A stretch of 64,000 bases of DNA from an uncultured archaeon (GCA_964353745.1 CAYGWD010000001.1:3440-67439); one strand, 5' to 3'; positions 517-33,877 are shown, counted from the stretch's first letter. Notes: a model not told the origin generated them from the sequence alone. Program-made: numbers and translations.

Positions 517-1164
517 TTTTCACAAACAATTTTTTATTATTCTTTTTATTTAGGGGAACAAATAATAATATGTGATCAGATGAGGATGAAACTTGTTTTC
601 CCGTTGGTAGCAGTTTTCGCGGTCATAGCTTTAGCCATATTCAGCTATATGGACGAGACATTGCTAGGGATAATAATAGCCGTTGTGATGTTCGTATGGC
701 CGATACTGTTCTTTATTTTAACAAAGTTCATTGAGAACCGCGGCTCTGGGGCAAAGGAAGATAAGAGAGATTTGAAACAGGACATTATTGATGGAGTAGA
801 AGGAGATTCAAAACCTTCAAAAGAAGTTGAGAAAGAAGAATTTATTGTACCACAGAAAAAGGACGCCAACATAGGAATCGCAAAAGAAGAGTTGGAGAAA
901 TTGAAAGGGGCCTCAGATTTGTTGGACGAGGAAAAGAAGGATGGGATGTTGTCTGAGGACGCTTACAACGAAATGAAAAAGCAGAGCAAGGAAGCAATAG
1001 AAAAATTAGAAGAGGAGATAGCAAAGGCCTCTGGAGAGACTGGGGACAAGAAAGTTTATTGCAAAAAAGGCAAGCACTACATTTCTGTGAGGGATTGCCT
1101 ACCTTCGAAAATAGATGGCTATGTCATCTGCCAGGAGCACAACGAAGAGATAAGGGCTGAATAG
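499..1164 (+). CDS. membrane-anchored coiled-coil protein with C-terminal Cys/His cluster
   Basis: Two N-terminal hydrophobic helices, then a K/E-rich coiled-coil stretch. C-terminus reads YCKKGKHY...CLPSK...CQEH. Confidence 0.4.
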   Translation: MNQRTRFSQTIFYYSFYLGEQIIICDQMRMKLVFPLVAVFAVIALAIFSYMDETLLGIIIAVVMFVWPILFFILTKFIENRGSGAKEDKRDLKQDIIDGVEGDSKPSKEVEKEEFIVPQKKDANIGIAKEELEKLKGASDLLDEEKKDGMLSEDAYNEMKKQSKEAIEKLEEEIAKASGETGDKKVYCKKGKHYISVRDCLPSKIDGYVICQEHNEEIRAE

Positions 1165-1165
1165 G

Positions 1166-1585
1166 TCAGCATTTTATAGCCAAGCCATGTCTTTTAGTTC
1201 GTTCCACTTCACTTTTAGGATGTAATTCGTTTCCTCTTGGTTCATGAAGTTCACAAATTTTGCATACTGAAGTTCCTATCTCGAACTCACTTTTAAATCT
1301 TTCTCTGCCTGCTTCGCTTATAGTTTTTTTCTTATAACCTGTGAAATGGCAAAGAACTGCCACTTGTTGTGGGTTATATTCATCACGCATGAAATGCATC
1401 TCAGCATAATTTATAGGAAAAATCCCTGACTTTCTTACCTTTTCATTTTCACAAGCATAAACCTCGAAAAAATTACTCTCGCTTAAAGCTTGACATGATG
1501 GTAACATCATTAAAATTATGTCGGATGCAGCTCCAGCCCCAACAGCATATGCACAATTTCCCCATGTTTGTTCCTGTTTAGTCAT
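1166..1585 (-). CDS. hypothetical protein (139 aa)
   Basis: Intact ORF in the island. No recognised motif. Confidence 0.35.
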   Translation of the reverse strand: MTKQEQTWGNCAYAVGAGAASDIILMMLPSCQALSESNFFEVYACENEKVRKSGIFPINYAEMHFMRDEYNPQQVAVLCHFTGYKKKTISEAGRERFKSEFEIGTSVCKICELHEPRGNELHPKSEVERTKRHGLAIKC

Positions 1586-12491: not shown

Positions 12492-13736
12492 ATGAAAATA
12501 AAATGTCTGGGCGGTTTCAGGGAAGTTGGAAGAACCGCTGTTCTAGTGGAAGGTAAGGAAAATGTCCTGCTCGATTACGGAATGGAGGTAGAAACTGGCA
12601 AGCTGCCCAACCCTGTTAATAAGGTGGACATTGCTATTTTAGGCCATGCGCACCTCGACCACAGCGGTTATTGCCCTGTAATTTATAGAAAGTTCAAGCC
12701 GCCTATTTACTCGACTATCGCAACTTTTGAACTTGCCCATCTGCTCTTGAAAGACAGCATCAAAGTCGCGAAGTATAGGGGCCTTGTCAGACGCTTTGAA
12801 AAAAACGACATTGAGAAAATGAAGAATCATGAAGTGATAGTAACCTACGGCCAGAAGATCGAAGGAGATAATTTTTCTTTGGACATATTTGACGCTGGCC
12901 ATATACCTGGAAGCATGGCGCCTTTGTTGGAGATGGGAAACAAAAGAATACTTTATGCCTGCGACTTTAATACTAATCCGTCACGCCTGCTGAACGGGGC
13001 AAGCATAGACGCCAAGGATGTGGACGTCTTAATAATAGAGAGCACTTATTCTGAAAGGAACCATTCCCCGAGAAAGGAAACCGAGAAAAAGTTCTTTGAA
13101 GCTGTTGAAAGCACTATCGCCAATGAGGGAGTGGCGGTGATACCCTGTTTCGCTGTCGGAAGGGCAGCAGAGATACTAATGATATTGAAAAGTTTCAATC
13201 CAAAGTTTCCTGTTTATCTTGACGGCATGGCAAAGACTGCCTCTCAACTGGCAATGAAATACCCTGAATTTATCAGGGACCCCAAAGCCTTGAAAAAAGC
13301 CTTGAATATTTCTCGCCTCATATGGGATGAAAAGGATAGAAAGAAAGTGGTAAAAAAGCCTTGCGCTATTATTTCATCCAGTGGAATGCTGGAAGGAGGA
13401 CCGTCTGTCAGTTATATAAAATATTTGTATAATAACCCTGAGAGCTCTGTCATATTCACTGGGTTTTTGATTCCTAATACTGCTGGAAGGGCGCTGGTGG
13501 AGACTGGTAGGTTCGTCACGGAAGGGTTTGACTTGAAAATAAAGATGGGTATTCATCGATTTGATTTTTCTGCCCATGCAGGTCGTGATGATTTGTTTAA
13601 ATTTGTTGATGAGATCAATCCTCAGAAAGTTATTTGCTTGCATGGAGACAATTGCGAATGTTTTGCCAAAGAACTTGGAGAAAAAGGATTTGATGCGATC
13701 GCTCCAAAGAATGGGGATATAGTTGATATTGATTGA
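12492..13736 (+). CDS. beta-CASP metallo-beta-lactamase ribonuclease (aCPSF2 / RNase J-like)
   Basis: MBL motif HAHLDHSG, later D and H motifs, and a 414-aa size matching short archaeal CPSF homologues lacking KH domains. Confidence 0.75.
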   Translation: MKIKCLGGFREVGRTAVLVEGKENVLLDYGMEVETGKLPNPVNKVDIAILGHAHLDHSGYCPVIYRKFKPPIYSTIATFELAHLLLKDSIKVAKYRGLVRRFEKNDIEKMKNHEVIVTYGQKIEGDNFSLDIFDAGHIPGSMAPLLEMGNKRILYACDFNTNPSRLLNGASIDAKDVDVLIIESTYSERNHSPRKETEKKFFEAVESTIANEGVAVIPCFAVGRAAEILMILKSFNPKFPVYLDGMAKTASQLAMKYPEFIRDPKALKKALNISRLIWDEKDRKKVVKKPCAIISSSGMLEGGPSVSYIKYLYNNPESSVIFTGFLIPNTAGRALVETGRFVTEGFDLKIKMGIHRFDFSAHAGRDDLFKFVDEINPQKVICLHGDNCECFAKELGEKGFDAIAPKNGDIVDID

Positions 13737-13794: not shown

Positions 13795-15054
13795 ATGAAC
13801 TTTGAAGAAGAATTTCAAACATATATTAAAAATTCTCCTAAAGTCAAGACAACTGTTCATTGGTGGGACCTATATAATGGGCATTATGTAGAATTGACTT
13901 CTGATATACAAAAGCAATTATTTCATGAAGCTATCAGCAAAAGTGGGTCTTACACTTCATTGGGCAAATCTCTAAATAAACCTAGAAAAATAATATCAAA
14001 TTGTTCAAAACTGATTCATAGACCGAATGTTTTATTACTGAAAAAATTATGCGATTATATTGATTTTTCTAGAAGTGAAATTGAAAGAAATATATTAAAT
14101 ATCGGCAAATCACATTTCAAACCAAATCTTCCATTTAAACTTCATAATGAAAGCGGCGTAGAGATAAGAGCTGCATTTCTTTCTGACGGTCATGTTCCTA
14201 AGAATCCGACTTCATGTCCTGTATATTCAGCATCAGAAATGGATCTTCAAGAAAGATTGATTGAACTTTGCAAGATTATATTTGGAGAATTTAACTGTGA
14301 AATAAAGTATGGGCATAAAGCATTAGAAACAAAATTCCCTGCTGTTATAGGCACCGCATTGGAACTTGGTGGCGTGCCTAGAGGAGATAAACGAATTGTC
14401 AATTGCTACGTACCTAAGGATATATTAACTGGAGAAGATAAATTAAAGCGGATATATCTAAGTAGAGTTTTCGACGATGAAGGAGATGTCTACTTTGATA
14501 AACATGGCAAAAGAGCTGTCAGATTAACTAGGACTGTTAGCATAAATAATTGTAAAGATACTTTTAAATTAAATCAAGGAAAATGGACACCATGCAATGT
14601 CTCTAATGCTCCAATAAGCAACTTGATAAGAGGCGAACAACTTCTCTTAAGAAGACTAAGAATTGATGCCAAAATCTACAATGAAGGCTTCTATAGATCT
14701 AGAAAAGATAAAATTACCACAAAATGGAGAATTCAAATCGGTCAGCAAGACAGTGTTAAAAGATTTGAATCAGAAATAGGCTTTGGTTTAGAAGCAAAAC
14801 GAGACAAGTTAAAGAAATTGGTAAATTCTTATGTAAAGAGAAAACTTCCTAACAATTGTGGGAAGAATCTTGTAATGGAAGTTGGTAGAAAATATTATCA
14901 GAGGAACGGGTTTTTTCGCTATAGAGATTTAAGCAAAGATTTTGTAAGCATGAAATTCTCCTCAAACTTCGCTGGAAGCCATTTGAAAAGCCTACTAAAT
15001 GAGGGTAAAATCAGAAAAATTGAACGTGGTAAATATGTTATTAATAGACGGTAG
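13795..15054 (+). CDS. hypothetical protein with two degenerate LAGLIDADG-like motifs and a C-terminal winged-helix-like tail
   Basis: Candidate motifs are AAFLSDGH (about aa 123) and LSRVFDDEGDV (about aa 212), roughly 90 aa apart. C-terminus is [20 protein letters not shown]. The ORF overlaps the rtcA start. Confidence 0.4.
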   Translation: MNFEEEFQTYIKNSPKVKTTVHWWDLYNGHYVELTSDIQKQLFHEAISKSGSYTSLGKSLNKPRKIISNCSKLIHRPNVLLLKKLCDYIDFSRSEIERNILNIGKSHFKPNLPFKLHNESGVEIRAAFLSDGHVPKNPTSCPVYSASEMDLQERLIELCKIIFGEFNCEIKYGHKALETKFPAVIGTALELGGVPRGDKRIVNCYVPKDILTGEDKLKRIYLSRVFDDEGDVYFDKHGKRAVRLTRTVSINNCKDTFKLNQGKWTPCNVSNAPISNLIRGEQLLLRRLRIDAKIYNEGFYRSRKDKITTKWRIQIGQQDSVKRFESEIGFGLEAKRDKLKKLVNSYVKRKLPNNCGKNLVMEVGRKYYQRNGFFRYRDLSKDFVSMKFSSNFAGSHLKSLLNEGKIRKIERGKYVINRR

Positions 15055-16033
15055 TTATGGCGAATCCGGAGGCCAAATATTGAGAACTTCTGTTGCTTTG
15101 TCAGCAATTACAGGAAAGCCTTGTAAAATTTTTAATATAAGAAAGAATAGAGAGAATCCTGGTTTGAAAGCTCAGCATCTTAAAGGAATAGAAGCCGCAG
15201 CTGAAATATGCAATGCCGAATTAAAGAATGCTAAGATAGGCAGTGACTGGATAGAATTCGTACCTAAGAAAATCAAAAGTGGTAATTTTTCTATAGATAT
15301 TAAAACTGCAGGCTCGTTAACATTGTTTCTCCAAACAATAATCCCTGTATGCATCCATGCCGATAAAGAAATTAATTTGGAAGTGATTGGCGGAACCGAT
15401 GTTGAATGGAGCCCTAACGTAGAATATTTCCAGGAAGTTTTTTGTAGAAATGTTGAAAAGATGGGTGTTGAAATAGAATCAGAAATATTAAAATACGGTT
15501 TCTATCCCAAAGGCGGAGGAAAAATCAAAGTTAGAATAAAACCATGCGATAAATTAAAGCCTTGGGTTTGTTTGGAAAGAGGTAAAGTAAATAGATATGA
15601 CATTAGAAGCATTGTCAGCAAATCTTTGGAAAGAGCTAAAGTAGCGGAAAGACAAATCGAGGGTGCAAAGAAAATAATACCCAAGTTTGATTGCGAACAT
15701 TCAGAGTATGTGGAAGCTCTATCGCCTGGAACAGCAGTTCATATACATGCTCATTGCGATAATTCGGTGTTAGGCTCTACGTTTTTAGGCAGAATTGGTA
15801 AACCTGCTGAAAAAATCGGCGAGGAATGTGCAAGATTCTTAATGAAACAGATAGAATCTAATGCATGCTTGGATGAGCACATGGCAGATCAAATCCTCCC
15901 TTATCTAGCATTAGCAGGCAAATCAAAAGTTTCTGTCGCTGAGATTACAAATCATTGCAGAACAAATATGTGGGTTATAGAAAAATTCTTACCAGTGAAG
16001 TTTGAAATAAATGATAGAATAATATCAGTTTAA
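15035..16033 (+). CDS. rtcA: RNA 3'-terminal phosphate cyclase
   Basis: Hallmark [27 protein letters not shown]. The ORF opens at 14999 but the internal Met at 15035 matches family N-termini. Confidence 0.85.
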
Positions 16034-16641
16034 CTGCAAGCTCTTGTTTTCTTGGTTGTCTGAGAGCATCCGCTTGGGCTGCATTTCCTTGACCAATAGC
16101 AGGTTGTGCAGGTACCATCACTCTCACAGTTTGTTACCCACGAACCACAAGTGCAGACAGGTTGATTGTTGAAAGAACCATTGCTAACAGTACAGGTTAT
16201 GGGAAATGATGACTGATCGCCTAATTTTGCATCTTTGATTTCTAAATAGCAACTGCCAACGCTTTTTACTTTGAACGTTAAAGTTGCTATTGAAGAACTT
16301 CCTGTGAAACCGTTGTAAGGACTCTTTGCAGAGTATGCAGCCTCATAATAGCTATTAATATTATCTATCCATTTCATTGAATCAAACCATAAGTTTTTTG
16401 TATTCACCTTTGCACTAACCAAATTTAGTAAACTATTATTCCAATAAAGTTTAAAATCGAAACCATAGAGGTTAATTACGTTATCAACCTTTACATCAAC
16501 AGTGAAGTTGCTGCTTGGCGTAAGATTCGAATTAACAACGCTAGAAGGATTCACATAAATCGTTGCAGCAAAGGCCGTGTTAGCAAAAAGGGTAGACAGG
16601 AGAATTGAGATTAAAAATATTTTTGATTTCATCATGTGCAC
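16030..16641 (-). CDS. secreted cohesin-like domain protein with Cys-rich C-terminal tail
   Basis: Signal peptide with AFA cleavage-like site. Beta-sandwich pattern FTVDVKVDNV...ATLTFKVKSVGSCYLEIKDAKLGD...VSNGSF typical of type-I cohesins. C-terminal tail has 11 Cys. Confidence 0.55.
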   Translation of the reverse strand: MHMMKSKIFLISILLSTLFANTAFAATIYVNPSSVVNSNLTPSSNFTVDVKVDNVINLYGFDFKLYWNNSLLNLVSAKVNTKNLWFDSMKWIDNINSYYEAAYSAKSPYNGFTGSSSIATLTFKVKSVGSCYLEIKDAKLGDQSSFPITCTVSNGSFNNQPVCTCGSWVTNCESDGTCTTCYWSRKCSPSGCSQTTKKTRACS

Positions 16642-19600
16642 CTCTTGTTGAAGTTGTTAGACAATATTATGGCATCTAAAATATTTACTATTCCATCACC
16701 ATTTATATCGCCAGTTGAAGTCTTTTTGTTGAAGTTGTTAGACAATGTTATGGCATCTAAAATATTTACTATGCCATCACAATTTATATCGCCTAGACAG
16801 TTACAAGGCTTGGTGACTATGACTCTTACGCTCGCTGGGTCTACTCTTGATAGTGCATCTGTCCACCAATCATTGCCTGTGTTGCCATTGTTGCCTGCAT
16901 CCTGACCTAAATCCCTCTCGTGTATCCAGAACATTATTCTTTGATTTCCTGTTGTTGACCTATAAAATGAAGCTGGAGCTTGACAACTCACAACAATAGT
17001 TTCTCCCATATCTAATATACCATTTGGAAAGTCTTCACTCGCTACTGTACAACTAACTCCTGTTGGGCATTGACTTGGAGGTGCATGAACGCAACCATCG
17101 CTTCCACTGCCTCCGTCGTAAAAAGCATTTATTCTTCCTTTATTATCTCTTGTTCCCAACGGATTGTTATAATCTGAAACATTCCAAAATTCAACACCTA
17201 CATACCAATTATTTTGTGCATGCCATCCAGTATTAAGTATAGAAACGTTAACAACTATAAATGAAGTGTCCCAAATAGAAACATCACCACTAGTAACTCC
17301 ATTTACATTTACATCATTTATATAAGAATCATAAGTAACATCACATTGACATAGTCCTCCACAATGATAATCTCTCATTTGATTTGCACTATTGTATGCT
17401 TGAAGGAAAGGTGCCCGACAAGCTACTGCATAATTAGGCACTGCTGCAGTGTCAGGATAACCTCCGTCATAGCTTTCACATGTTTCTTTTCCACTAGCTC
17501 TTATTGCTAATATATTATTTATTGCATTTGCTCCATTAACTCTTCCGTGGCCTTCAATGCTAGTTCCATAACCGGCAGGTTCTGCACCTTCTATTAAAGC
17601 TTTTCTTATGTCACAAACACTTGCAGTAGGATATGCCTGGAACATTAACGCAACAGTTCCTGAAACATGAGGAGTTGCCATACTAGTTCCACTTTGTGCA
17701 TGGTATTTATCATTTCCACAAATATCAAACCAAGTTGCCTCTCTTCCTTGAGAAGATCTTGCAGCACAAATAAATTCTCCAGGAGCAGTTACATCAGGCT
17801 TTATAGTACCTTGAGGTGCTGGTCCTCTACTGCTGGAAAAGGATACAAAGTCTTTTGTTCCTGGAGTATTTTTTATGAAGATATTTCGATAAGTTTCACT
17901 GTCTTGAGTCCAAGTTCCAGTGCAACCGGTAGTATCTGGAGTTCCACATCTATAAGGCCATCCTATTCTATCTTCAATGTTACAATCTTTTGGTGCCCCA
18001 TTACATCCTACCCAAGCATAGCAATGTTGGATTTCATGGCCCCAACAACCGCTACACTCGCTTTGTGGTTTGTCCGGATAACAAGTCGTTGGACCGATTC
18101 CATCGTAAAATAATCCGCAACCACACCAACTACAACCTAACTGATTTTCACATCCGTTTCTATTAAGAGGATCAAAATCGTTACAAACTTTAGGAGTACC
18201 TGAACATGAAAAAGTATTCGTGCGTGAGTTGTACCATGGTTCAGGATCACCAGGACAACAACCCCAACCGCCTTCGTTCTGATGAGAACGCAATAAAATT
18301 TCAAAACCTACATATGGTCCTGCAGCGAAATTTTGAGAAGCTAAATTCCAAAAACCATCACCATTACCTCTACCATTTGGATCCCACCAAACATCTGTTG
18401 CAGAATAACAAGGTCTGTCTTTGTGTTCACTTTCTAAATTAAAATTAATGTTAGCAGGCCATGAGCTTGGTTGTAATGTTAAATGAACACCTGTTTCCTC
18501 AGTTAAAGGAAAATCGTCTATGCTATCCAAATCTGTTATAATAGCGCCTGCATTATTGGTAAATTGACTTACAACTTCAGAATTAACATTTATATTTAAT
18601 TTATTTCTATAAGGAATTTTATCATTTAAAAACATTAATGAATTATAAACATTGTTTGGAAAATCTTTTTTTACTGTTGAACCTACTGCAATAACTCCAT
18701 CTATACATGCAGGATATAGTGTAGCAACTGCTGGGCCATCATTTCCTTGAGCAGCTACAAACACTACTCCATGACCTAGAGCACTAATGATAGCATTGTA
18801 CCTTCTTAGATCATCTCCAAACAAATTTAAACCTCTACATATATTTGCATCTGAAGGTCTACCAGAACTGTAGCTAATCACGTTAACATGCTGTGCTATT
18901 GCTTGCTCTATAGCATCTGCAATCCAAAGTGAATTTGTTGTACCATCGTCCTTATAAACCTTCCAAATATACAAATCAGCTTTTGGAGCAACTCCTTTGT
19001 ATTTTCCGCCAGACTCAGAACCGTTACCTGCAGCTATTCCTGCACAATGTGTTCCATGAGCGCTTTTATCTGTATATGAAGTATGTCTGTCGGTTGTTGT
19101 GTCGTTCCAAAATTTAATTCTTCCTGCAAAATCTTTATGATTGTCTATACCTGTGTCTATCATTGCTATTCTTACACCTTCGCCAGTTAAATCACTCCCT
19201 AAATAATTATAAGGTAATCCCATAGAACTTACAGAATCGTTTAAAGCAGGTTTATCCATTACCACATCTCTAACATAAAATCCAAGTCCTCTTAAAGTTT
19301 TTGTTAAACTTTCATAGTTTTCATTTGGTACTTCAATAAGAGATGTAGCATAATCAGGATCATTAACGTAAACTGATGCATTATATTCTTTTACAATTTC
19401 GTCTAAAGGTAAGCTTGAAATTTCTTCATATTCTACACTTAATGATTTTGAAAGAGTTTGCGATAAAACTTTTGGTGATGAATAAACACTATTCCATTTT
19501 TCAGGTTTGAAAAGAAATTGTGAATAATTTTCCAATGGTGGCAATATTTCTATATAAGAATTATTTGTTTCTATTTTTTCTGCCCCTAACATTGAAAAAG

Positions 19601-19658
19601 CTGGAGAGATAAATAAAGGTAACAAAAATATTATTAAAAAAATAATTTTTATTTCCAT
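16632..19658 (-). CDS. S8 subtilisin-like serine protease with large Cys-rich insertion and C-terminal tandem dockerin
   Basis: Signal peptide. Catalytic motifs D (IAMIDTGID), H (HGTHCAG), N (AAQGNDGP) and S (GTSMATPHVSG). About 280 aa inserted between the N and S motifs. C-terminus is DINCDGIVNILDAITLSNNF...DINGDGIVNILDAIILSNNF. Confidence 0.85.
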   Translation of the reverse strand: MEIKIIFLIIFLLPLFISPAFSMLGAEKIETNNSYIEILPPLENYSQFLFKPEKWNSVYSSPKVLSQTLSKSLSVEYEEISSLPLDEIVKEYNASVYVNDPDYATSLIEVPNENYESLTKTLRGLGFYVRDVVMDKPALNDSVSSMGLPYNYLGSDLTGEGVRIAMIDTGIDNHKDFAGRIKFWNDTTTDRHTSYTDKSAHGTHCAGIAAGNGSESGGKYKGVAPKADLYIWKVYKDDGTTNSLWIADAIEQAIAQHVNVISYSSGRPSDANICRGLNLFGDDLRRYNAIISALGHGVVFVAAQGNDGPAVATLYPACIDGVIAVGSTVKKDFPNNVYNSLMFLNDKIPYRNKLNINVNSEVVSQFTNNAGAIITDLDSIDDFPLTEETGVHLTLQPSSWPANINFNLESEHKDRPCYSATDVWWDPNGRGNGDGFWNLASQNFAAGPYVGFEILLRSHQNEGGWGCCPGDPEPWYNSRTNTFSCSGTPKVCNDFDPLNRNGCENQLGCSWCGCGLFYDGIGPTTCYPDKPQSECSGCWGHEIQHCYAWVGCNGAPKDCNIEDRIGWPYRCGTPDTTGCTGTWTQDSETYRNIFIKNTPGTKDFVSFSSSRGPAPQGTIKPDVTAPGEFICAARSSQGREATWFDICGNDKYHAQSGTSMATPHVSGTVALMFQAYPTASVCDIRKALIEGAEPAGYGTSIEGHGRVNGANAINNILAIRASGKETCESYDGGYPDTAAVPNYAVACRAPFLQAYNSANQMRDYHCGGLCQCDVTYDSYINDVNVNGVTSGDVSIWDTSFIVVNVSILNTGWHAQNNWYVGVEFWNVSDYNNPLGTRDNKGRINAFYDGGSGSDGCVHAPPSQCPTGVSCTVASEDFPNGILDMGETIVVSCQAPASFYRSTTGNQRIMFWIHERDLGQDAGNNGNTGNDWWTDALSRVDPASVRVIVTKPCNCLGDINCDGIVNILDAITLSNNFNKKTSTGDINGDGIVNILDAIILSNNFNKRCT
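16635..16800 (-). other. dockerin type-I duplicated Ca-binding segments (domain of the S8 protease)
   Basis: Two 69-nt DNA copies, about 95 percent identical, at an 81-nt period, encoding DINxDGIVNILDAIxLSNNFNK twice. Confidence 0.75.
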
Positions 19659-20302
19659 TTTGTATCCTTTCCCCTTTTTAGTAATTTGTTTGCATTATAA
19701 ACTCCAGAAGCAAGCCAAGCTGGAATATGTTCGATAATACCTCCACCTACATTACGCCAAGCTAAGGTATTTTGTTGATAGCCTGTTAAAGCTTCATGAT
19801 TAACTTCTATTAAATCCTGTGAAAGTGGAAAATATTGCGCTGCATAATCTGCGGCATGATTTACTGGTGGTGCATAACTAAAAGGATTGATGTTACCAAA
19901 ATCAAACAGAGGTTTGCCTGTAAAATTCCCAGTATTAGCGACTCCTGTCGGCATTCCTGATGAAAAATCAAGTGGACGTTTAGAAATTTCTCTTTCAAAA
20001 TCAAATCTATAGTGTGCAGTTGTTAAACCCAAAGCTAAAGAAATTAGAGATGGTATTGCTATAGATAATATAGTTCCTTTATGCCTTCCTATCACACTAC
20101 TGCTGGTTGGATCATTAACGAACATATAACTAACTTTTTCTCCAATCTCATCTATTCGTTTATTTACTTTACCTAAAGTATCTTTTATTTTATAAATTGT
20201 AGATTGATTTGTCATTCCTAGCAAAGACTTTTCACCTTCTTCACTTAATCTGTAATAATCAGCTATTTCGTCTCTAGAACCATATTTTAGCATATTAATC
20301 AT
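19649..20302 (-). CDS. hypothetical protein (217 aa), first gene of the protease operon
   Basis: Overlaps the protease start by 10 nt. Central hydrophobic segment. G/N/F-rich region. Confidence 0.4.
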   Translation of the reverse strand: MINMLKYGSRDEIADYYRLSEEGEKSLLGMTNQSTIYKIKDTLGKVNKRIDEIGEKVSYMFVNDPTSSSVIGRHKGTILSIAIPSLISLALGLTTAHYRFDFEREISKRPLDFSSGMPTGVANTGNFTGKPLFDFGNINPFSYAPPVNHAADYAAQYFPLSQDLIEVNHEALTGYQQNTLAWRNVGGGIIEHIPAWLASGVYNANKLLKRGKDTKWK

Positions 20303-20411
20303 TATAACCTTATTTAAAAACTATGGATAAAAAACATTTAAAAGCAATATTATATTTAAATCTAACTACGACTATTGCATAATTTTTATTAAGAACTCAA
20401 GCCGAGTTAAA

Positions 20412-20982: not shown

Positions 20983-23748
20983 TCATATATCTGTAAATTT
21001 CTCTTCTTCAACATTATTGGTCTTTCTTGCCAAGCTTTCCAAATAAGAGGTCTTCTTATGATTGTTAGTTTTCTTAGAAATTTTTCCTAGGTAATAGCTT
21101 ATCTTGGTTCTTTGCAAGAAAATGAAGACACAGGCGATTATTGCAACCACTATAACTATCACAGTGGTTAAAATGGATGTTTGAACTGGCGCTGTAACAG
21201 TTGTCTCTCCTCTATTCACGGTACAGCTCTGCGACTCGCTAGGCTTACCGGCTGTCGTGCCGCAGCTGTTAGCATCAGTGCATGTCCTAGTCTGTTGACT
21301 GTTTGCACAGGCAGACCAATCCCCGCATGTCCAAGACTCTGTGCATGCAGCAGGCGTTTCAGGGATTATGGGTGCGCCGCCTGTGGTTCCTATGACGAAC
21401 ACAGACAGGCCTGGTGAACTTACTTTGTAAAATACTTCTCTATCGTCTTCAGATACTTTAACTGCGCTCAAATCATTCCATTTATTGTTTGACCACCTGT
21501 AAAGAGTAATGTTAGAAGCGCTAATATTGTTATTCGTCAGCCATGTCTTGTTGACGGCAAAAGAAATATTAACTACTCTAATGTCAGAATCTGTAAAGTT
21601 TAGTTTATCCACGCTAATGTAATTATAGACCTTTCCGTCGATATCATAAGGAACTGATGATGGCAAATTTGCTAATTTCAAGGTCATTATCTTTATGTTT
21701 GCCACATTGTTTACAACTGTAATATTCAATCCTCTTATTGCCACGTCCTGATATCTTGCTATTTTTGCAATCAGCTTTCCGTCTGTCGTGAGATAGTTTG
21801 CTGTGATGTTTGCTTTACCGACTGCAAGGTTGATGTAAGTAACCATGCCTGTTGATGTAATGCCGCTAATTGAAGACCCGCTTGTGGTAGTTGTGGGTGT
21901 AGCCGCAGCAGTTACTACTATGACCACTGTATATATGCTTGAATTAGCAGACCAATTTTCTCCTGCTGTGGAATTTAACATATAGGTATAAGTACTCGCC
22001 GTTGACTGTGTATAAGCAGAAAAACTTGTGGTACCATTAGCGAGGCTAACAAAACTTGTATCTCTCCAAAAACTATAATTGACATCCGCATCACCACCAT
22101 TACTTTCTAATGGTGTTATGCTTGCAGTGTTTGGTAATGTAACATTAGAACCTGATATTGAACCTGTAGTTGCACCCTTGCTTATGTTCCACCATAGGAA
22201 AACAACAGAACTAGCTGAATAATTTTGATCAGCAATAACGGATGCGTTGAAATAATTATTATAAGCACCCCATTGCCTTATATCATTTGCTGTTGATGAA
22301 GCACTAACTAACGATGTTCCGTTTCTCCATATCGTAACGTTTGCTCCTGTTATGTTAGCTACAGCTGTGGCATTAATTGTAGAATTAGGATAGGTTGATG
22401 TTATGTTGTTTATGGTTCCATTTAAGTATAGTATTACCGAAGTTGCTGCTAGATTAATAGTAGCATTCAAATTAGTAGAAGAAGCTGAGTAGTTTTCACC
22501 AGTATCATAAACTGCAGTAAAGTTATGGAGTCCTCCTCCCCACAAATTTGTATTATTACAAGAAGTTGCTCCAGAACATATGCTTAAACTATTTCTATAA
22601 ATATTAATAGCTAATCCTGTTACATTTATAACTGCTGTGATATTGAGAGTAGAATTGGGATAAGTTGATGTCCAGTTTGCTTGTGTTCCATTTATAAATA
22701 GATTTATTGAAGTTGGTCCTTTAGACACATTAAACCATAGGAAAACGTTAACGCTGTCCGTATAATTATCATTACCAAGAACCCGGGCAGTGAAATTATT
22801 GTTAGAAGCATTCCATTGCGAGATGTTCCATGCAGTGCCAGTTGCATTACTTATTAAAGTTCCACTTCTCCACAATTGAACATAAAGTCCAGAAACATTA
22901 GAGACTGCCGTGACGTTTATCGTGGAATTGGGATAGGTTGATGTTATATTCGCTACTGTATCATTTAAATACAAAGTGGCCAAAGTCGCCGCTTGTGCTA
23001 TATAAATTATGACAGGACTTGATGCGTTCATATTGCCCCTTGTATCATTGGCATAGGATTTCCATTGCCATATTCCTGCAGGCAGAACTGCTGAATAATT
23101 ATAAATTCCTCCACCATAAGTGGGAGTCGTCGAAGCATTGGAGTTAGACCAGTTCCCTTCTATCAAAACTGTTGATATGTCCACATTGTCTGCCCAAGTG
23201 ATATTGAATCGAGACGGCGTTGATGAATAGATTAAAGGTGTAACATTTGATTGTCCAGACCATGTTGGATACGTAGTGTCATTAACTGTCACAGAAACAT
23301 TAGTAGAATTATAAACTCCAGCTGTATCTAAGGTTGAAACATTAAAATTATATGCAACGCTTGCATTCGAAGGTACAATTACATTTATAGAAAAGTATTG
23401 CGTGTCGCCTCCGCTGACAACAAAGCCTGTTTCTGTTGTATTAACCCAAGAGACTAGCTGGCCAGCACTTGAAAAAATCGTACCGCTTGCCGTTGTTGTA
23501 TTGCTAGCGGCTATAAAACCAAAACCGGCTGGCAGGGTTATATTAACTTGAGTTATATTCCCAGTTGCATTGATATTGACGATGGTAAAGTTTAGAATTT
23601 GATTGGTTGTGCTTGCATTTACATTAGTCGGGTTTACGTTAGAAGTAAAGGGTATGCTAAACACCGGCAAAACAAAAATCAAAATCAGTGCAATTGCTAA
23701 GAGTACTGCAAAAGATAATCCTATTTTAACAAACCCTTTCCTATTCAA
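20983..23748 (-). CDS. large membrane-anchored surface (S-layer-like) glycoprotein
   Basis: Signal/TM at N-terminus. Dozens of N-x-S/T sequons. Three tandem roughly 90-aa repeats (STYPNSTxNxTAV...WRxG). A Cys-rich module, then a C-terminal TM helix plus basic cytoplasmic tail. Confidence 0.65.
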   Translation of the reverse strand: MNRKGFVKIGLSFAVLLAIALILIFVLPVFSIPFTSNVNPTNVNASTTNQILNFTIVNINATGNITQVNITLPAGFGFIAASNTTTASGTIFSSAGQLVSWVNTTETGFVVSGGDTQYFSINVIVPSNASVAYNFNVSTLDTAGVYNSTNVSVTVNDTTYPTWSGQSNVTPLIYSSTPSRFNITWADNVDISTVLIEGNWSNSNASTTPTYGGGIYNYSAVLPAGIWQWKSYANDTRGNMNASSPVIIYIAQAATLATLYLNDTVANITSTYPNSTINVTAVSNVSGLYVQLWRSGTLISNATGTAWNISQWNASNNNFTARVLGNDNYTDSVNVFLWFNVSKGPTSINLFINGTQANWTSTYPNSTLNITAVINVTGLAINIYRNSLSICSGATSCNNTNLWGGGLHNFTAVYDTGENYSASSTNLNATINLAATSVILYLNGTINNITSTYPNSTINATAVANITGANVTIWRNGTSLVSASSTANDIRQWGAYNNYFNASVIADQNYSASSVVFLWWNISKGATTGSISGSNVTLPNTASITPLESNGGDADVNYSFWRDTSFVSLANGTTSFSAYTQSTASTYTYMLNSTAGENWSANSSIYTVVIVVTAAATPTTTTSGSSISGITSTGMVTYINLAVGKANITANYLTTDGKLIAKIARYQDVAIRGLNITVVNNVANIKIMTLKLANLPSSVPYDIDGKVYNYISVDKLNFTDSDIRVVNISFAVNKTWLTNNNISASNITLYRWSNNKWNDLSAVKVSEDDREVFYKVSSPGLSVFVIGTTGGAPIIPETPAACTESWTCGDWSACANSQQTRTCTDANSCGTTAGKPSESQSCTVNRGETTVTAPVQTSILTTVIVIVVAIIACVFIFLQRTKISYYLGKISKKTNNHKKTSYLESLARKTNNVEEEKFTDI

Positions 23749-31441: not shown

Positions 31442-33877
31442 TTATGAACTGTAATGAATTATTCTTTTTATATTTTCCAAGGAAAGATTTCTAGGTCTTA
31501 GATTTCTTAATAAATAGCTGGGTCTGAAATAAAATTCTCTATAAGCTTTTCTTTTCATTTCTAGCAATAGCTCTGGCGTCAGTTCTCCTAATTTAAACTT
31601 TTTAGGTTTATCATAATGTCCTGAGAACTTAACATTCCAATCTTCTAAAAGTTCACCTTCTCTCTTAATAAGATCATAAACTCTTGTGCCTACAAAAGGT
31701 GTTAATGTAGTAAACTGAGCAAATGTTGGGTCTAATTCTTTAGCAAAGTCTATTGTCTCTTGCATAGTTTCTCTATTTTCACCTGGAAGACCTAAAACAA
31801 AGAAGGCGGTTGACTCTATGTCAAGTTTTTTACAAAGTTCAAATGTTTTCTTAACTTTATTGAGGTCTAATCTCTTGTCAATCGTTTTCATTATGCGTTT
31901 TGAACCTGTTTCAACACCAAATGCTACTCTTATGCATCCTGCTTTTTTCATCTTCTTAAGAGTTTGATAGTTTACAAATTCTGCTCTTAAACCATTGGGA
32001 AAGAAATGCGGAAGATTTAATTTCTTTTTAAGAATAAGGTCATAAATTTTATTTACTCTTTCTAACGATAGGTTAAAAATATCATCATATATTGCAATTT
32101 CTTCTACATTTATGTCATTAATAAGCCATTCCCATTCTTTAACAACGTTTTCAGGACTTCTTGCTCTCCACATATATCCAAACAATCCTTTGAAACAATA
32201 AATACAATTGAAAGGACAACCACGACTATTTCCACTCCAAACAGATTTTCCTTTTCTTCTCACATAAATTATATGATTAGGAACTTCACAACAATAGATT
32301 TTACCAAGATAATTCTCTTTAGATGTATGTTTACGCCTGCCATGCTTATCAATATAATTAATTACTGGCATATTTTGTTTTTTATTAAAAATTATACGAT
32401 AGCAAGGGAATTGAGATTTTATTGTTTTGCCTTTAATTTTTCCTATAGAATTGTTTAGTTTATTTTTAATATTCCCACTCCAACCAACTTTTAGAAGTAT
32501 CTCTTGAATGTCGTCAATCAATTTTTTAGAAGTAGTTATATACTCAATTTCTCCAATTTTTGATATATATCCATCGCCTAAAACAAGTGCATCTAATAAA
32601 ATTTTAAGGTAATTAGTTGAAAGTTGTTTTATTTCTTTTGGAACGAATTTATCTTCAGCATGACCAAACTGTTTTAGATAGCAGCATAATTGTTTGTTTG
32701 AAATAAAAAATCCTTCTATAGGATGCTTATAGTATTTATAACCCAATTTTTTAATACAGTCTTCCATTTTTTTATAGGATTCTGTTCCGACTTTCTGCGA
32801 AATTTTAACAATCCAAGAATTATTACTTTTTTTATGTTGAACTGAACCTTCACTAAGATAATAACCTAGAAATTCTAACCATAAGCCCATTGGTATTATT
32901 TTTCCCTCTGATTTTCTAATTTTATTTATTGGGTTAAATTCATGGAGAACTTCTGGTAATATAAAATAGTCTTTTTTGTCTCCCAACCATATGGCATCTT
33001 TTTTCATCCGAAAATCATTCTTATTCATTAAAATAGAGACATCTATTAGTGTAAATTTATTTGGGCGTTTTGACCTTAATCTAACATATAGTTTGTGATT
33101 TGGCGTAACTAATAAATTGATTTGTTTACATTCTATTTTACACATATCACCATTATAGTCATAAGACATTAATTTTGATGGTTTTTGATATTCTAAATTA
33201 TGATTTTCAGGATTGAGAGTAGCTATCTCATTTTCATAGGTTAAATCTTTAAAAAGTTTCCATCCATCTTCTGTTAGAACTTCTGTTTGGTCGTCATAGC
33301 ATGTCATAATTCCAGCGCCACGTTTATGAGGATGCGGTACAAACCATGTATATTTTTCTAATGGTGGAAATAAATGATAAGCAGGGAAAGGTAAAGAATC
33401 TAAATCTTTTATAAGTGGTCTTGGTTTAGTAACTATGATTCTGTTTCCATATTTGAATGCAATACCTTTTACATTTTTTAGATTTTTTTTGTTTTCTATA
33501 TTTTTAATTAATTCAGATGTTGTAATTTCTCCTTCACCTATGACAACATAATCTATATCTGCTATTTCTAATAATTCATGGGATTGACATGTTGGATGTG
33601 GACCTCCCATCATAATCTTTATATCTGGATTATATTGTCTTGCTTTTTTTACTAATTTCAATGAGCCTGCTATGGTTAACGTCGTTGCTGTTATACCTAA
33701 AACTTCATTTTCCTTAACTGATTTTTTGAATTTTTCATCCGACTCAACATTCAAATCAACAACGGAAACTTCATGTCCATCTCTTTCTAAAACAGATGCT
33801 ATATAACCCAAACCTATATTTATAGTCTTAACTGGTTCAAAACAAGAATAATTGGGACTTACTAACAGAACTTTCAT
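31442..33877 (-). CDS. B12-binding-domain radical SAM enzyme (paralogue 2) interrupted by an intein
   Basis: The 811-aa ORF has extein ...GAGIMT | intein | SRGCPFNCIYC. The spliced product would be 453 aa with a junction IMTSRGC matching the paralogues. Confidence 0.75.
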   Translation of the reverse strand: MKVLLVSPNYSCFEPVKTINIGLGYIASVLERDGHEVSVVDLNVESDEKFKKSVKENEVLGITATTLTIAGSLKLVKKARQYNPDIKIMMGGPHPTCQSHELLEIADIDYVVIGEGEITTSELIKNIENKKNLKNVKGIAFKYGNRIIVTKPRPLIKDLDSLPFPAYHLFPPLEKYTWFVPHPHKRGAGIMTCYDDQTEVLTEDGWKLFKDLTYENEIATLNPENHNLEYQKPSKLMSYDYNGDMCKIECKQINLLVTPNHKLYVRLRSKRPNKFTLIDVSILMNKNDFRMKKDAIWLGDKKDYFILPEVLHEFNPINKIRKSEGKIIPMGLWLEFLGYYLSEGSVQHKKSNNSWIVKISQKVGTESYKKMEDCIKKLGYKYYKHPIEGFFISNKQLCCYLKQFGHAEDKFVPKEIKQLSTNYLKILLDALVLGDGYISKIGEIEYITTSKKLIDDIQEILLKVGWSGNIKNKLNNSIGKIKGKTIKSQFPCYRIIFNKKQNMPVINYIDKHGRRKHTSKENYLGKIYCCEVPNHIIYVRRKGKSVWSGNSRGCPFNCIYCFKGLFGYMWRARSPENVVKEWEWLINDINVEEIAIYDDIFNLSLERVNKIYDLILKKKLNLPHFFPNGLRAEFVNYQTLKKMKKAGCIRVAFGVETGSKRIMKTIDKRLDLNKVKKTFELCKKLDIESTAFFVLGLPGENRETMQETIDFAKELDPTFAQFTTLTPFVGTRVYDLIKREGELLEDWNVKFSGHYDKPKKFKLGELTPELLLEMKRKAYREFYFRPSYLLRNLRPRNLSLENIKRIIHYSS
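32228..33301 (-). other. intein (358 aa) with LAGLIDADG homing-endonuclease domain
   Basis: Block A CYDDQTEVLTEDGWK. Block B VTPNHKLYV. LAGLIDADG-like LGYYLSEGSV and LLDALVLGDGYI. It ends VWSGN followed by the +1 Ser. Confidence 0.7.

Follow-up and report, generated by a model that had tools for sequence, protein, structure and literature searches.

What two neighbouring genes, one for a dockerin-bearing protease and one for a cohesin protein, do in an archaeon, and whether their products dock onto each other, is the question raised by a 64-kb stretch of DNA (hereafter the window; ~35% G+C) from an uncultured archaeon (GCA_964353745.1 CAYGWD010000001.1:3440-67439). The upstream gene encodes an S8 protease that ends in a dockerin, and the downstream gene encodes a small secreted protein, here called the adaptor, which carries a cohesin domain and a C-terminal module with eight cysteines (8-Cys module). 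These last two genes of an operon probably make up a minimal one-to-one, non-cellulosomal cohesin-dockerin pair. We put at about 0.7 the probability that a cohesin-dockerin complex of the two proteins links a cargo, here the protease, to the 8-Cys module. The features concerned are as follows.

16632-19658, minus strand: S8 subtilisin-like serine protease precursor, 1008 aa, intact open reading frame (ORF); a putative signal peptide and propeptide are followed by the catalytic domain, which bears a Cys-rich insert, by a C-terminal region rich in beta structure and by the dockerin
16635-16823, minus strand: dockerin module, protease residues 946-1008, two 22-residue segments of a Ca loop plus helix
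16725-16790, minus strand: dockerin segment 1 (DINCDGIVNILDAITLSNNFNK)
16644-16709, minus strand: dockerin segment 2 (DINGDGIVNILDAIILSNNFNK)
16639-16644, minus strand: Shine-Dalgarno (SD)-like GAGGTG, embedded in the final codons of the dockerin (K-R-C) and separated by 3 nt from the cohesin ATG
16030-16635, minus strand: cohesin adaptor gene, 201 aa from the ATG at 16635; putative signal peptide 1-23, cohesin domain ~24-155, 8-Cys module 156-201
16033-16170, minus strand: 8-Cys module at the adaptor C-terminus, with the pattern P-x-C-x-C-[GT]-x-W ... [YT]-R-x-C-x-P-x-G-C ... C

Identification of the dockerin and the cohesin

The 1008-aa protein matched Pfam Peptidase_S8 with E = 1.2e-50. Hidden Markov model (HMM) searches with the dockerin and cohesin profiles scored above the curated cut-offs for both proteins. 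Dockerin_1 (PF00404) reached 28.1 bits on protease residues 955-1004 (cut-off 22.9), and Cohesin (PF00963) reached 30.2 bits on adaptor residues 41-157 (cut-off 24.1, E = 6e-7), the latter match spanning profile positions 11-137 of 139. The NCBIfam model dockerin_GC scored 20.5 on the protease, against a cut-off of 29. The protease C-terminus reads ...KPCNCLG-DINCDGIVNILDAITLSNNFNK-KTSTG-DINGDGIVNILDAIILSNNFNK-RCT; both of its 12-residue dockerin loops, DINCDGIVNILD and DINGDGIVNILD, have the canonical Ca-ligand residues D1, N3, D5, N9, and D12, and each is followed by AI(T/I)LSNNFNK. A preliminary description of this locus had proposed a protease ending in two dockerin Ca-binding segments, and the Pfam score and the canonical loops bear this out. 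No second dockerin or cohesin was found in the window by a regular-expression scan and the family HMM.

The adaptor N-terminus, MMKSKIFLISILLSTLFANTAFA|ATIY, showed by inspection the n-, h-, and c-regions of a Sec signal peptide ending in AFA|A. A plain sequence search of the adaptor against PDB chains returned nothing meaningful, indicating that the family is remote at the sequence level. The AlphaFold2 (AF2) model of the adaptor, built with 13 orthologues, was all-beta and of moderate confidence (predicted local distance difference test, pLDDT, 70.9). When this model was compared with the PDB using Foldseek, all of the top 50 matches were cohesins, with types I, II, and III included; the best was 6kgd_A (E = 2.4e-8, TM-score (TMt) 0.74), and the best matches ranged from 0.74 to 0.77. 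The signal-peptide protein downstream of the protease had been described as cohesin-like, and the Pfam score and the predicted fold, a flattened beta-sandwich (jelly-roll), agree with that description.

Twelve adaptor orthologues were found in metagenomes, with 60-87% identity and all of ~200 aa, and every one of the 12 carried a precomputed PF00963 match. No relative of this cohesin family was found in GTDB species-representative genomes. In the adaptor tail (the last 46 residues), 8 Cys, 1 Trp, and 1 Arg were invariant across the 13 orthologues, all eight cysteines lying within the last 41 residues.

Conserved gene junction with exchangeable cargo

Of the operon genes at 19649-20302, 16632-19658, and 16030-16635, the first and second share 10 nt and the second and third share 4 nt. 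At the second junction, the protease frame reads AAC AAG AGG TGC ACA TGA and the cohesin frame reads ATG ATG AAA, the cohesin ATG (16633-16635) overlapping the protease TGA stop (16632-16634) in a 4-nt ATGA. A 10-nt overlap of the protease and cohesin genes had been reported earlier and is corrected here to 4 nt, with GAGGTG just upstream; the longer overlap exists only for a 203-aa version (16030-16641) starting at a mechanical GTG. The 201-aa product from the ATG is the form present in public data (P0001, 100% identity). At NCBI, neither the protease nor the adaptor carries a protein name. The dockerin and cohesin genes are tightly coupled in the manner of an operon.

For a survey of the pairing, loci were fetched for the cohesin orthologues, and the results below concern the loci that contain upstream sequence. 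In every such locus, a gene ending in a two-segment dockerin lay directly 5' of the cohesin gene. The cargos upstream of the cohesin were as follows.

L004/L005: S8 protease
L088/L089: S8 protease
L087: S8 protease with a frameshift
L095: 372-aa NosD/right-handed beta-helix protein (NosD E = 4e-26), ending ...GDINGDCVVDIYDAIILANNYNKHTSTGDLNKDGIVDIFDAILLANNYNKRC
L090: a different protein without family assignment
L091: the dockerin is the only visible part of the cargo
L093/L094: the dockerin is the only visible part of the cargo
L092: only ...NYNKRCS* of the cargo is visible

A AAGAGGTG or AAGGTGTG motif was located a few bases 5' of the cohesin ATG in L004, L087, L089, L091, L092, L093, and L095. 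This SD-like motif is spelled by the last dockerin codons, N-K-R/V-C, and was kept regardless of the cargo. Because the motif lies within dockerin codons, the end of the dockerin is under a dual constraint, as coding sequence and as ribosome-binding site. Since the junction is kept while the cargo changes, the conserved unit is any cargo ending in a dockerin, followed by the cohesin with its module. Such a link between dockerin and cohesin across lineages and cargos argues for a partnership, and the gene pair is real and very probably functional.

Two further observations were made at these loci. In L087:1-1762, the S8 gene is split over two frames near nt 1409-1478, which may be a pseudogene or an assembly error. 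In L090, a 79-aa ORF (1122-1361, plus strand) lies directly downstream of the cohesin gene. Its product starts like a signal peptide, has an N-terminal motif resembling a beta-helix, and contains just one dockerin segment (GDGIVDIFDAILLSNNFNKHC); the ORF could be what recombination left of a further dockerin cargo.

The 8-Cys module in fused and split form

To describe the distribution of the 8-Cys module, an exhaustive profile search of 1.84 billion representative proteins was used (E <= 0.001). It returned eight matches: P0013 of the adaptor's own family, P0050-P0053, and three spurious ones. P0053, a fragment of an S8 protease, has the module at its end (E = 5e-14); in P0052 the module immediately precedes a C-terminal transmembrane anchor with a basic tail; and P0050 and P0051 contain 3 and 5 tandem copies, respectively. 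P0054-P0056 were rejected as module carriers, the match being a short Y-x-Y-x-V-x-A-C-N-x-x-G-C-S hairpin inside fn3-like repeats.

Among the homologues of the window protease, P0062 has the 8-Cys module at its C-terminal end (tail profile, E = 6e-10). P0058, which is 71% identical over 94% of the window protease, has a C-terminus of the form CTCTNW...RTCTPKGC...C. The locus of P0058 (L096) has the order small gene, S8 gene, and convergent RtcA gene, a synteny like that of the window, and lacks the cohesin gene, as does the locus of P0062 (L098). Where the module is fused to the protease, the dockerin and the cohesin gene are both gone; in the split arrangement, both are present. The simplest reading of their being present or lost together is that the contact between dockerin and cohesin joins the cargo to the module.

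The C-termini of the protease homologues also vary in other ways, with a dockerin in P0060 and a Hint-like domain in P0059. The latter is a weak Hint_2 match (GGGC|LVEG...THNYF...LLIHN). Several of P0061 and P0063-P0066 end in long poly-glycine, some with a few basic residues after it. The Hint-like and poly-glycine ends may be alternative processing or attachment signals.

The 8-Cys module itself had no Pfam, NCBIfam, or PDB sequence match. A likeness to thrombospondin repeats was considered and dropped, as neither a PDB sequence match at E < 2 nor a Pfam match was present. Kinship to a motif in a 921-aa surface protein of the window or to the Cys-rich insert of the protease was also rejected, as both narrow and broadened HMMs missed the two regions.

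Compact dockerin and gene conversion between its segments

The usual dockerin linker between segments is longer than that of the window protease and sufficient for a middle helix. Here, the linker is KTSTG, 5 residues, giving a segment period of 27 aa (81 nt), and the predicted dockerin is a compact variant, below the usual module and linker length. Longer linkers were seen in L090 and P0060. A search for homologues of the dockerin returned only short metagenomic fragments of 59-114 aa, which were uninformative as to further cargos.

Cys950, Cys952, Cys958, and Cys1007 flank the dockerin segments. In the window and the orthologues, PCNC precedes loop 1 and a Cys occupies loop position 4 or 6; a Cys two residues past the last dockerin helix is conserved as well (NK[RVH]C). 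These cysteines might form a disulfide clasp linking the two ends of the module.

The two segments contain a DNA repeat of 68 nt with 96% identity and an 81-nt period. Over the 66-nt segments, segment 1 and segment 2 were 94% identical in the window, versus 85% in the closest relative, L091, and 64-76% in other lineages. The window segment 1 was 94% identical to segment 2 of L091 and only 85% identical to its own orthologue, segment 1 of L091. Positions 7-8 of segment 1 are T/K-R in other lineages and positions 21-22 are G-K/Q, residues that the window copy has lost. This cross-lineage comparison indicates that segment 2 overwrote most of segment 1 in the window lineage by gene conversion, with Cys4 kept, and that the two-segment design is ancestral. 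Of the two origins suggested at first for the near-identity of the segments, gene conversion thus agrees with the comparison, and a recent duplication is wrong.

As a result of the conversion, the dockerin has two nearly identical potential binding faces. A dual binding mode is known from clostridial dockerins (2vn5/2vn6), and the near-identical segments would be compatible with such a mode.

Proposed function and alternative explanations

According to the above results, we propose that the operon supplies a small membrane protein, a dockerin-bearing S8 protease, and the cohesin adaptor with its 8-Cys module. The protease and the adaptor would both be exported via Sec signal peptides. Outside the cell, we infer, the Ca-loaded C-terminal dockerin of the protease docks into the adaptor's one cohesin, which would attach the 8-Cys module, with its presumed disulfides, to the protease non-covalently. 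The dockerin-cohesin-module cassette would be a portable unit, used with other cargos in relatives and replaced by direct fusion in proteases that are paralogues or orthologues. The functional end of the complex is probably the module, which would most probably determine the location of the enzyme, for example on the envelope of the cell, on a partner protein, or on a substrate.

Several results weigh against this proposal. The linker between the dockerin segments is only 5 residues, and 50 protein residues span Pfam profile positions 1-57. AF2 leaves the dockerin unfolded (residues 951-1008, pLDDT 23-36), in a region where the alignment was 1-2 sequences deep and in a model that contains no Ca; because it is poorly modelled, the dockerin assignment draws on the profile score, on the motifs of the loops, and on conservation rather than on a fold. 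The dockerins of L095 and L090 are just under the Pfam cut-off (19.0 and 22.1 vs 22.9). The match of the P0058 C-terminus to the 8-Cys module is weak (3e-5), though its pattern is the same. P0060, a dockerin-bearing S8 protease (L097), has no adjacent cohesin gene, so that the predicted neighbour is absent there and the adjacency of dockerin and cohesin is not universal; its dockerin belongs to another sub-type, in which the linker is long. Finally, Pfam, NCBIfam, and inspection revealed no recognisable anchor on the adaptor, with transmembrane segment, lipobox cysteine, PGF-CTERM, and SLH all absent.

On a wider view, the 8-Cys module may be an undescribed targeting domain of uncultured archaea for envelope or substrate, and the cassette a plug-and-play adaptor that alternates with direct fusion. 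This generalisation is tentative, and we give it somewhat less than an even chance.

The pair could also be a cell-surface tether, in which the 8-Cys module would fix the adaptor to the envelope (S-layer, glycan, or membrane protein) and the protease would be displayed. This reading narrows the explanation preferred here, and we regard it as possible but rather doubtful. The module occupies the extreme C-terminus, which is the usual site of anchoring elements, and in P0052 it is membrane-proximal, directly before the transmembrane anchor; yet in P0052 it is this separate segment that does the anchoring, and the adaptor has neither a transmembrane segment nor a lipobox Cys, PGF-CTERM, or SLH-type element. 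A sortase-type signal or a C-terminal hydrophobic segment was not found on the adaptor either. The S8 double-dockerin protein of Clostridium thermocellum has been proposed to anchor protease on the cell surface (PMC12484212). The internal tandem modules of P0050 and P0051 fit a binding or spacer role as well as an anchoring one. The small transmembrane protein of the operon could be the receptor, but it is fast-evolving and barely conserved. It had been suggested that the Cys-rich tail could anchor the adaptor and that the locus is a self-contained tethering module. The position of the module before a separate anchor in P0052 indicates that the module itself is not a membrane anchor, and, for an adaptor with no transmembrane segment, lipobox, or PGF-CTERM-type signal, a self-contained tether is unproven.

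It is unlikely that the adjacent cohesin is not the partner at all, the dockerin being a Ca-binding stabiliser or binding a cohesin encoded elsewhere, with adjacency reflecting shared regulation. P0060 would fit such a situation, the view of the genome spans 64 kb, and Peer et al. 2009, according to PMC9012536, found that a range of bacteria and archaea that do not degrade cellulose have cohesin and dockerin modules, whose function is unclear. Against this reading, the junction, with its embedded SD motif and overlap, is kept as the cargo is swapped, and a loss of dockerin and cohesin gene together in the fused forms is expected only if both connect cargo and module. Control of the protease by the adaptor, which would retain the precursor, protect the C-terminus against autolysis, or link two proteases via the pair of equivalent faces offered by near-identical dockerin segments, is quite improbable: translational coupling would yield roughly equal amounts of both proteins and cellulosomes contain proteases and protease inhibitors alike (PMC12484212), but a NosD-like non-protease cargo uses the same cassette, protease relatives with a fused module work without any cohesin, and no inhibitor-like domain was found in the adaptor by Pfam or NCBIfam.

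Comparison with known cohesin-dockerin systems

Archaeal cohesin and dockerin modules without scaffoldins have been documented (PMC9012536, citing Bayer 1999, Haimovitz 2008, and Peer 2009). Those of Archaeoglobus fulgidus are reported as verified binders (PMC9012536) and have been built into designer cellulosomes as a functioning pair (PMC6394049; PMC12484212). The pair in the window belongs to this non-cellulosomal archaeal class: its context is archaeal, no scaffoldin with several cohesins was found with the family HMM in the window or the fetched loci, and no glycoside hydrolase or carbohydrate-binding module (CBM) match was found among the neighbouring genes examined. Of the label "cellulosome-style" given to the locus at first, the plug-and-socket principle stands, and the rest does not, as there is no scaffoldin, carbohydrate-active enzyme (CAZyme) cargo, or CBM.

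Like the locus described here, A. fulgidus combines an archaeal host with single cohesins, no cellulose context, and no multi-cohesin scaffoldin, and its cohesin 2xdh matched the adaptor model with E = 1.3e-7 (TMt 0.71, 20% identity). Unlike in A. fulgidus, the cargo in the window is an S8 protease, the adaptor is a 201-aa secreted protein with a new 8-Cys module, the dockerin linker has 5 residues, and the two genes are a conserved, translationally coupled pair with exchangeable cargo. In A. fulgidus, AF2375 and AF2376 are also neighbouring genes.

Dockerin-bearing S8 proteases are present in C. thermocellum, for which surface anchoring through ScaD has been proposed (PMC12484212). They resemble the window protease in their subtilisin family, in the C-terminal dockerin, and in a proposed role in protease placement rather than biomass degradation (PMC12484212). 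The C. thermocellum system is bacterial and includes a full cellulosome, scaffoldins, SLH anchoring, and two complete tandem dockerins, whereas the archaeal pair consists of a single two-segment dockerin and a single dedicated cohesin encoded by the adjacent gene, and has no known anchor.

With the classical type I structures (1ohz, 2ccl, and 6kgd), the adaptor shares the cohesin fold as predicted by its model (TMt 0.71-0.77, neighbours included) at 12-21% sequence identity, and the dockerin shares two 22-residue segments with the D-x-N-x-D-G-x-x-N-x-x-D Ca loop. The differences from classical cellulosomal pairs are a shorter linker, a Cys-flanked dockerin, and the lack of scaffoldin, CBM, CAZyme cargo, and SLH or sortase anchor. 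Anaerobic methanotrophic archaea (ANME) are, like the host of the window, uncultured, and have non-cellulolytic cohesin and dockerin proteins that are presumed organisers of the extracellular space (PMC9012536). In ANME, scaffoldin-like proteins can carry as many as 5 cohesins, and most cargos are binding proteins of ABC transporters and proteins with S-layer domains (PMC9012536), in contrast to the single-cohesin adaptor with an 8-Cys module and the protease cargo found here.

The docking principle is therefore already known, and the locus adds a minimal non-cellulose variant of it. In the searchable literature, no description was found of a single-cohesin secreted adaptor with an 8-Cys module, of a translationally coupled cohesin-dockerin cassette with exchangeable cargo, of fused/split alternation at one locus, or of a compact dockerin with a 5-residue linker. 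Non-cellulosomal cohesin and dockerin modules have been catalogued for more than 20 years, and their function is still called unclear. The present locus is an unusually clean natural case, with one dockerin, one cohesin, coupled neighbouring genes, swappable cargo, and fused relatives. The comparison of fused and split forms points to a purpose, namely the joining of the 8-Cys module to a cargo, and this is a testable hypothesis. If the plug-and-play adaptor is true, unexplained archaeal pairs would gain a concrete role, any secreted enzyme that gains the dockerin-cohesin cassette would acquire the module non-covalently, and a minimal one-to-one pair would become available for protein engineering. 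In practice, the locus would provide a small orthogonal cohesin-dockerin pair for designer scaffolds, and it is relevant to the use of extracellular proteases by archaea of sediments and hot springs.

The S8 protease and its Cys-rich insert

The closest solved relative of the protease is Tk-SP of Thermococcus kodakarensis (3afg, E = 9.6e-34). The triad D168/H201/S659 and the oxyanion N306 were invariant among 28 protease homologues, and with its triad intact the enzyme should be active. In the full-length AF2 model, the catalytic core and an alpha/beta propeptide-like domain (residues 33-131) had a pLDDT of ~90. The N-terminus is hydrophobic and ends in AFS by inspection, and Inhibitor_I9 was not matched in Pfam.

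17853-18662, minus strand: Cys-rich protease insert, residues 333-602

This insert of ~270 aa with 17 Cys lies between the oxyanion-Asn region and the catalytic-Ser segment. It has no counterpart in Tk-SP, since phmmer placed query positions 332/603 at 3afg positions 307/307. Thirteen of the 17 cysteines were invariant in P0057-P0060, and shorter inserts of 146-171 aa were present in P0061-P0066. The insert had no separate Pfam match and was mostly unfolded or poorly modelled in AF2.

Other genes of the operon and the host

19649-20302, minus strand: small upstream gene, 217 aa, one predicted transmembrane segment

The product of this gene had no Pfam or NCBIfam match. AT-rich, TATA-like TTTAAATA boxes were seen by inspection upstream of it at ~20311-20360, and it is probably the first gene of the operon. 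A small gene precedes the S8 gene in all S8 loci examined, with identities of 41% in L096 and 16-20% elsewhere; the fast-diverging protein may be a dedicated partner of the protease. At the other end of the operon, the stop of the cohesin gene overlaps the stop of the convergent rtcA.

The organism assignment rests on the seryl-tRNA synthetase (SerRS) of the window, which was 83% and 80% identical to those of archaeal metagenome-assembled genomes and 60-74% identical to those of Bathyarchaeia. The labels of the nearest genomes are inconsistent ("uncultured archaeon", "Aenigmatarchaeota", and Bathyarchaeia), so no phylum was assigned. An archaeal host, as supposed at the outset, is supported by the SerRS matches together with an STT3/AglB-type gene and a PGF-pre-PGF protein encoded in the window. 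An Rfam search of the window gave no match.

20983-23748, minus strand: 921-aa surface protein, PGF-pre-PGF domain (E = 6.8e-22), many N-x-S/T sites
13795-15054, plus strand: free-standing LAGLIDADG-type ORF, 419 aa, overlapping the rtcA start
31442-33877, minus strand: 811-aa B12-binding radical SAM protein

The surface protein has a Cys-rich motif (CTESWTCGDWSACANSQQTRTCTDANSCG) just before its C-terminal transmembrane anchor. The LAGLIDADG-type ORF sits between a beta-CASP/metallo-beta-lactamase gene (12492-13736) and rtcA and is present in L002. The corresponding interval in L004 contains a 44-aa ORF only, and in L089 rtcA is absent, which suggests that the ORF is an inserted homing-endonuclease-like gene. 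The gene for the 811-aa protein lies within a large B12-radical-SAM gene cluster (~31-54 kb), and a LAGLIDADG_3 match at residues 427-476, between the B12 and radical-SAM domains, indicates that this protein probably contains an intein.

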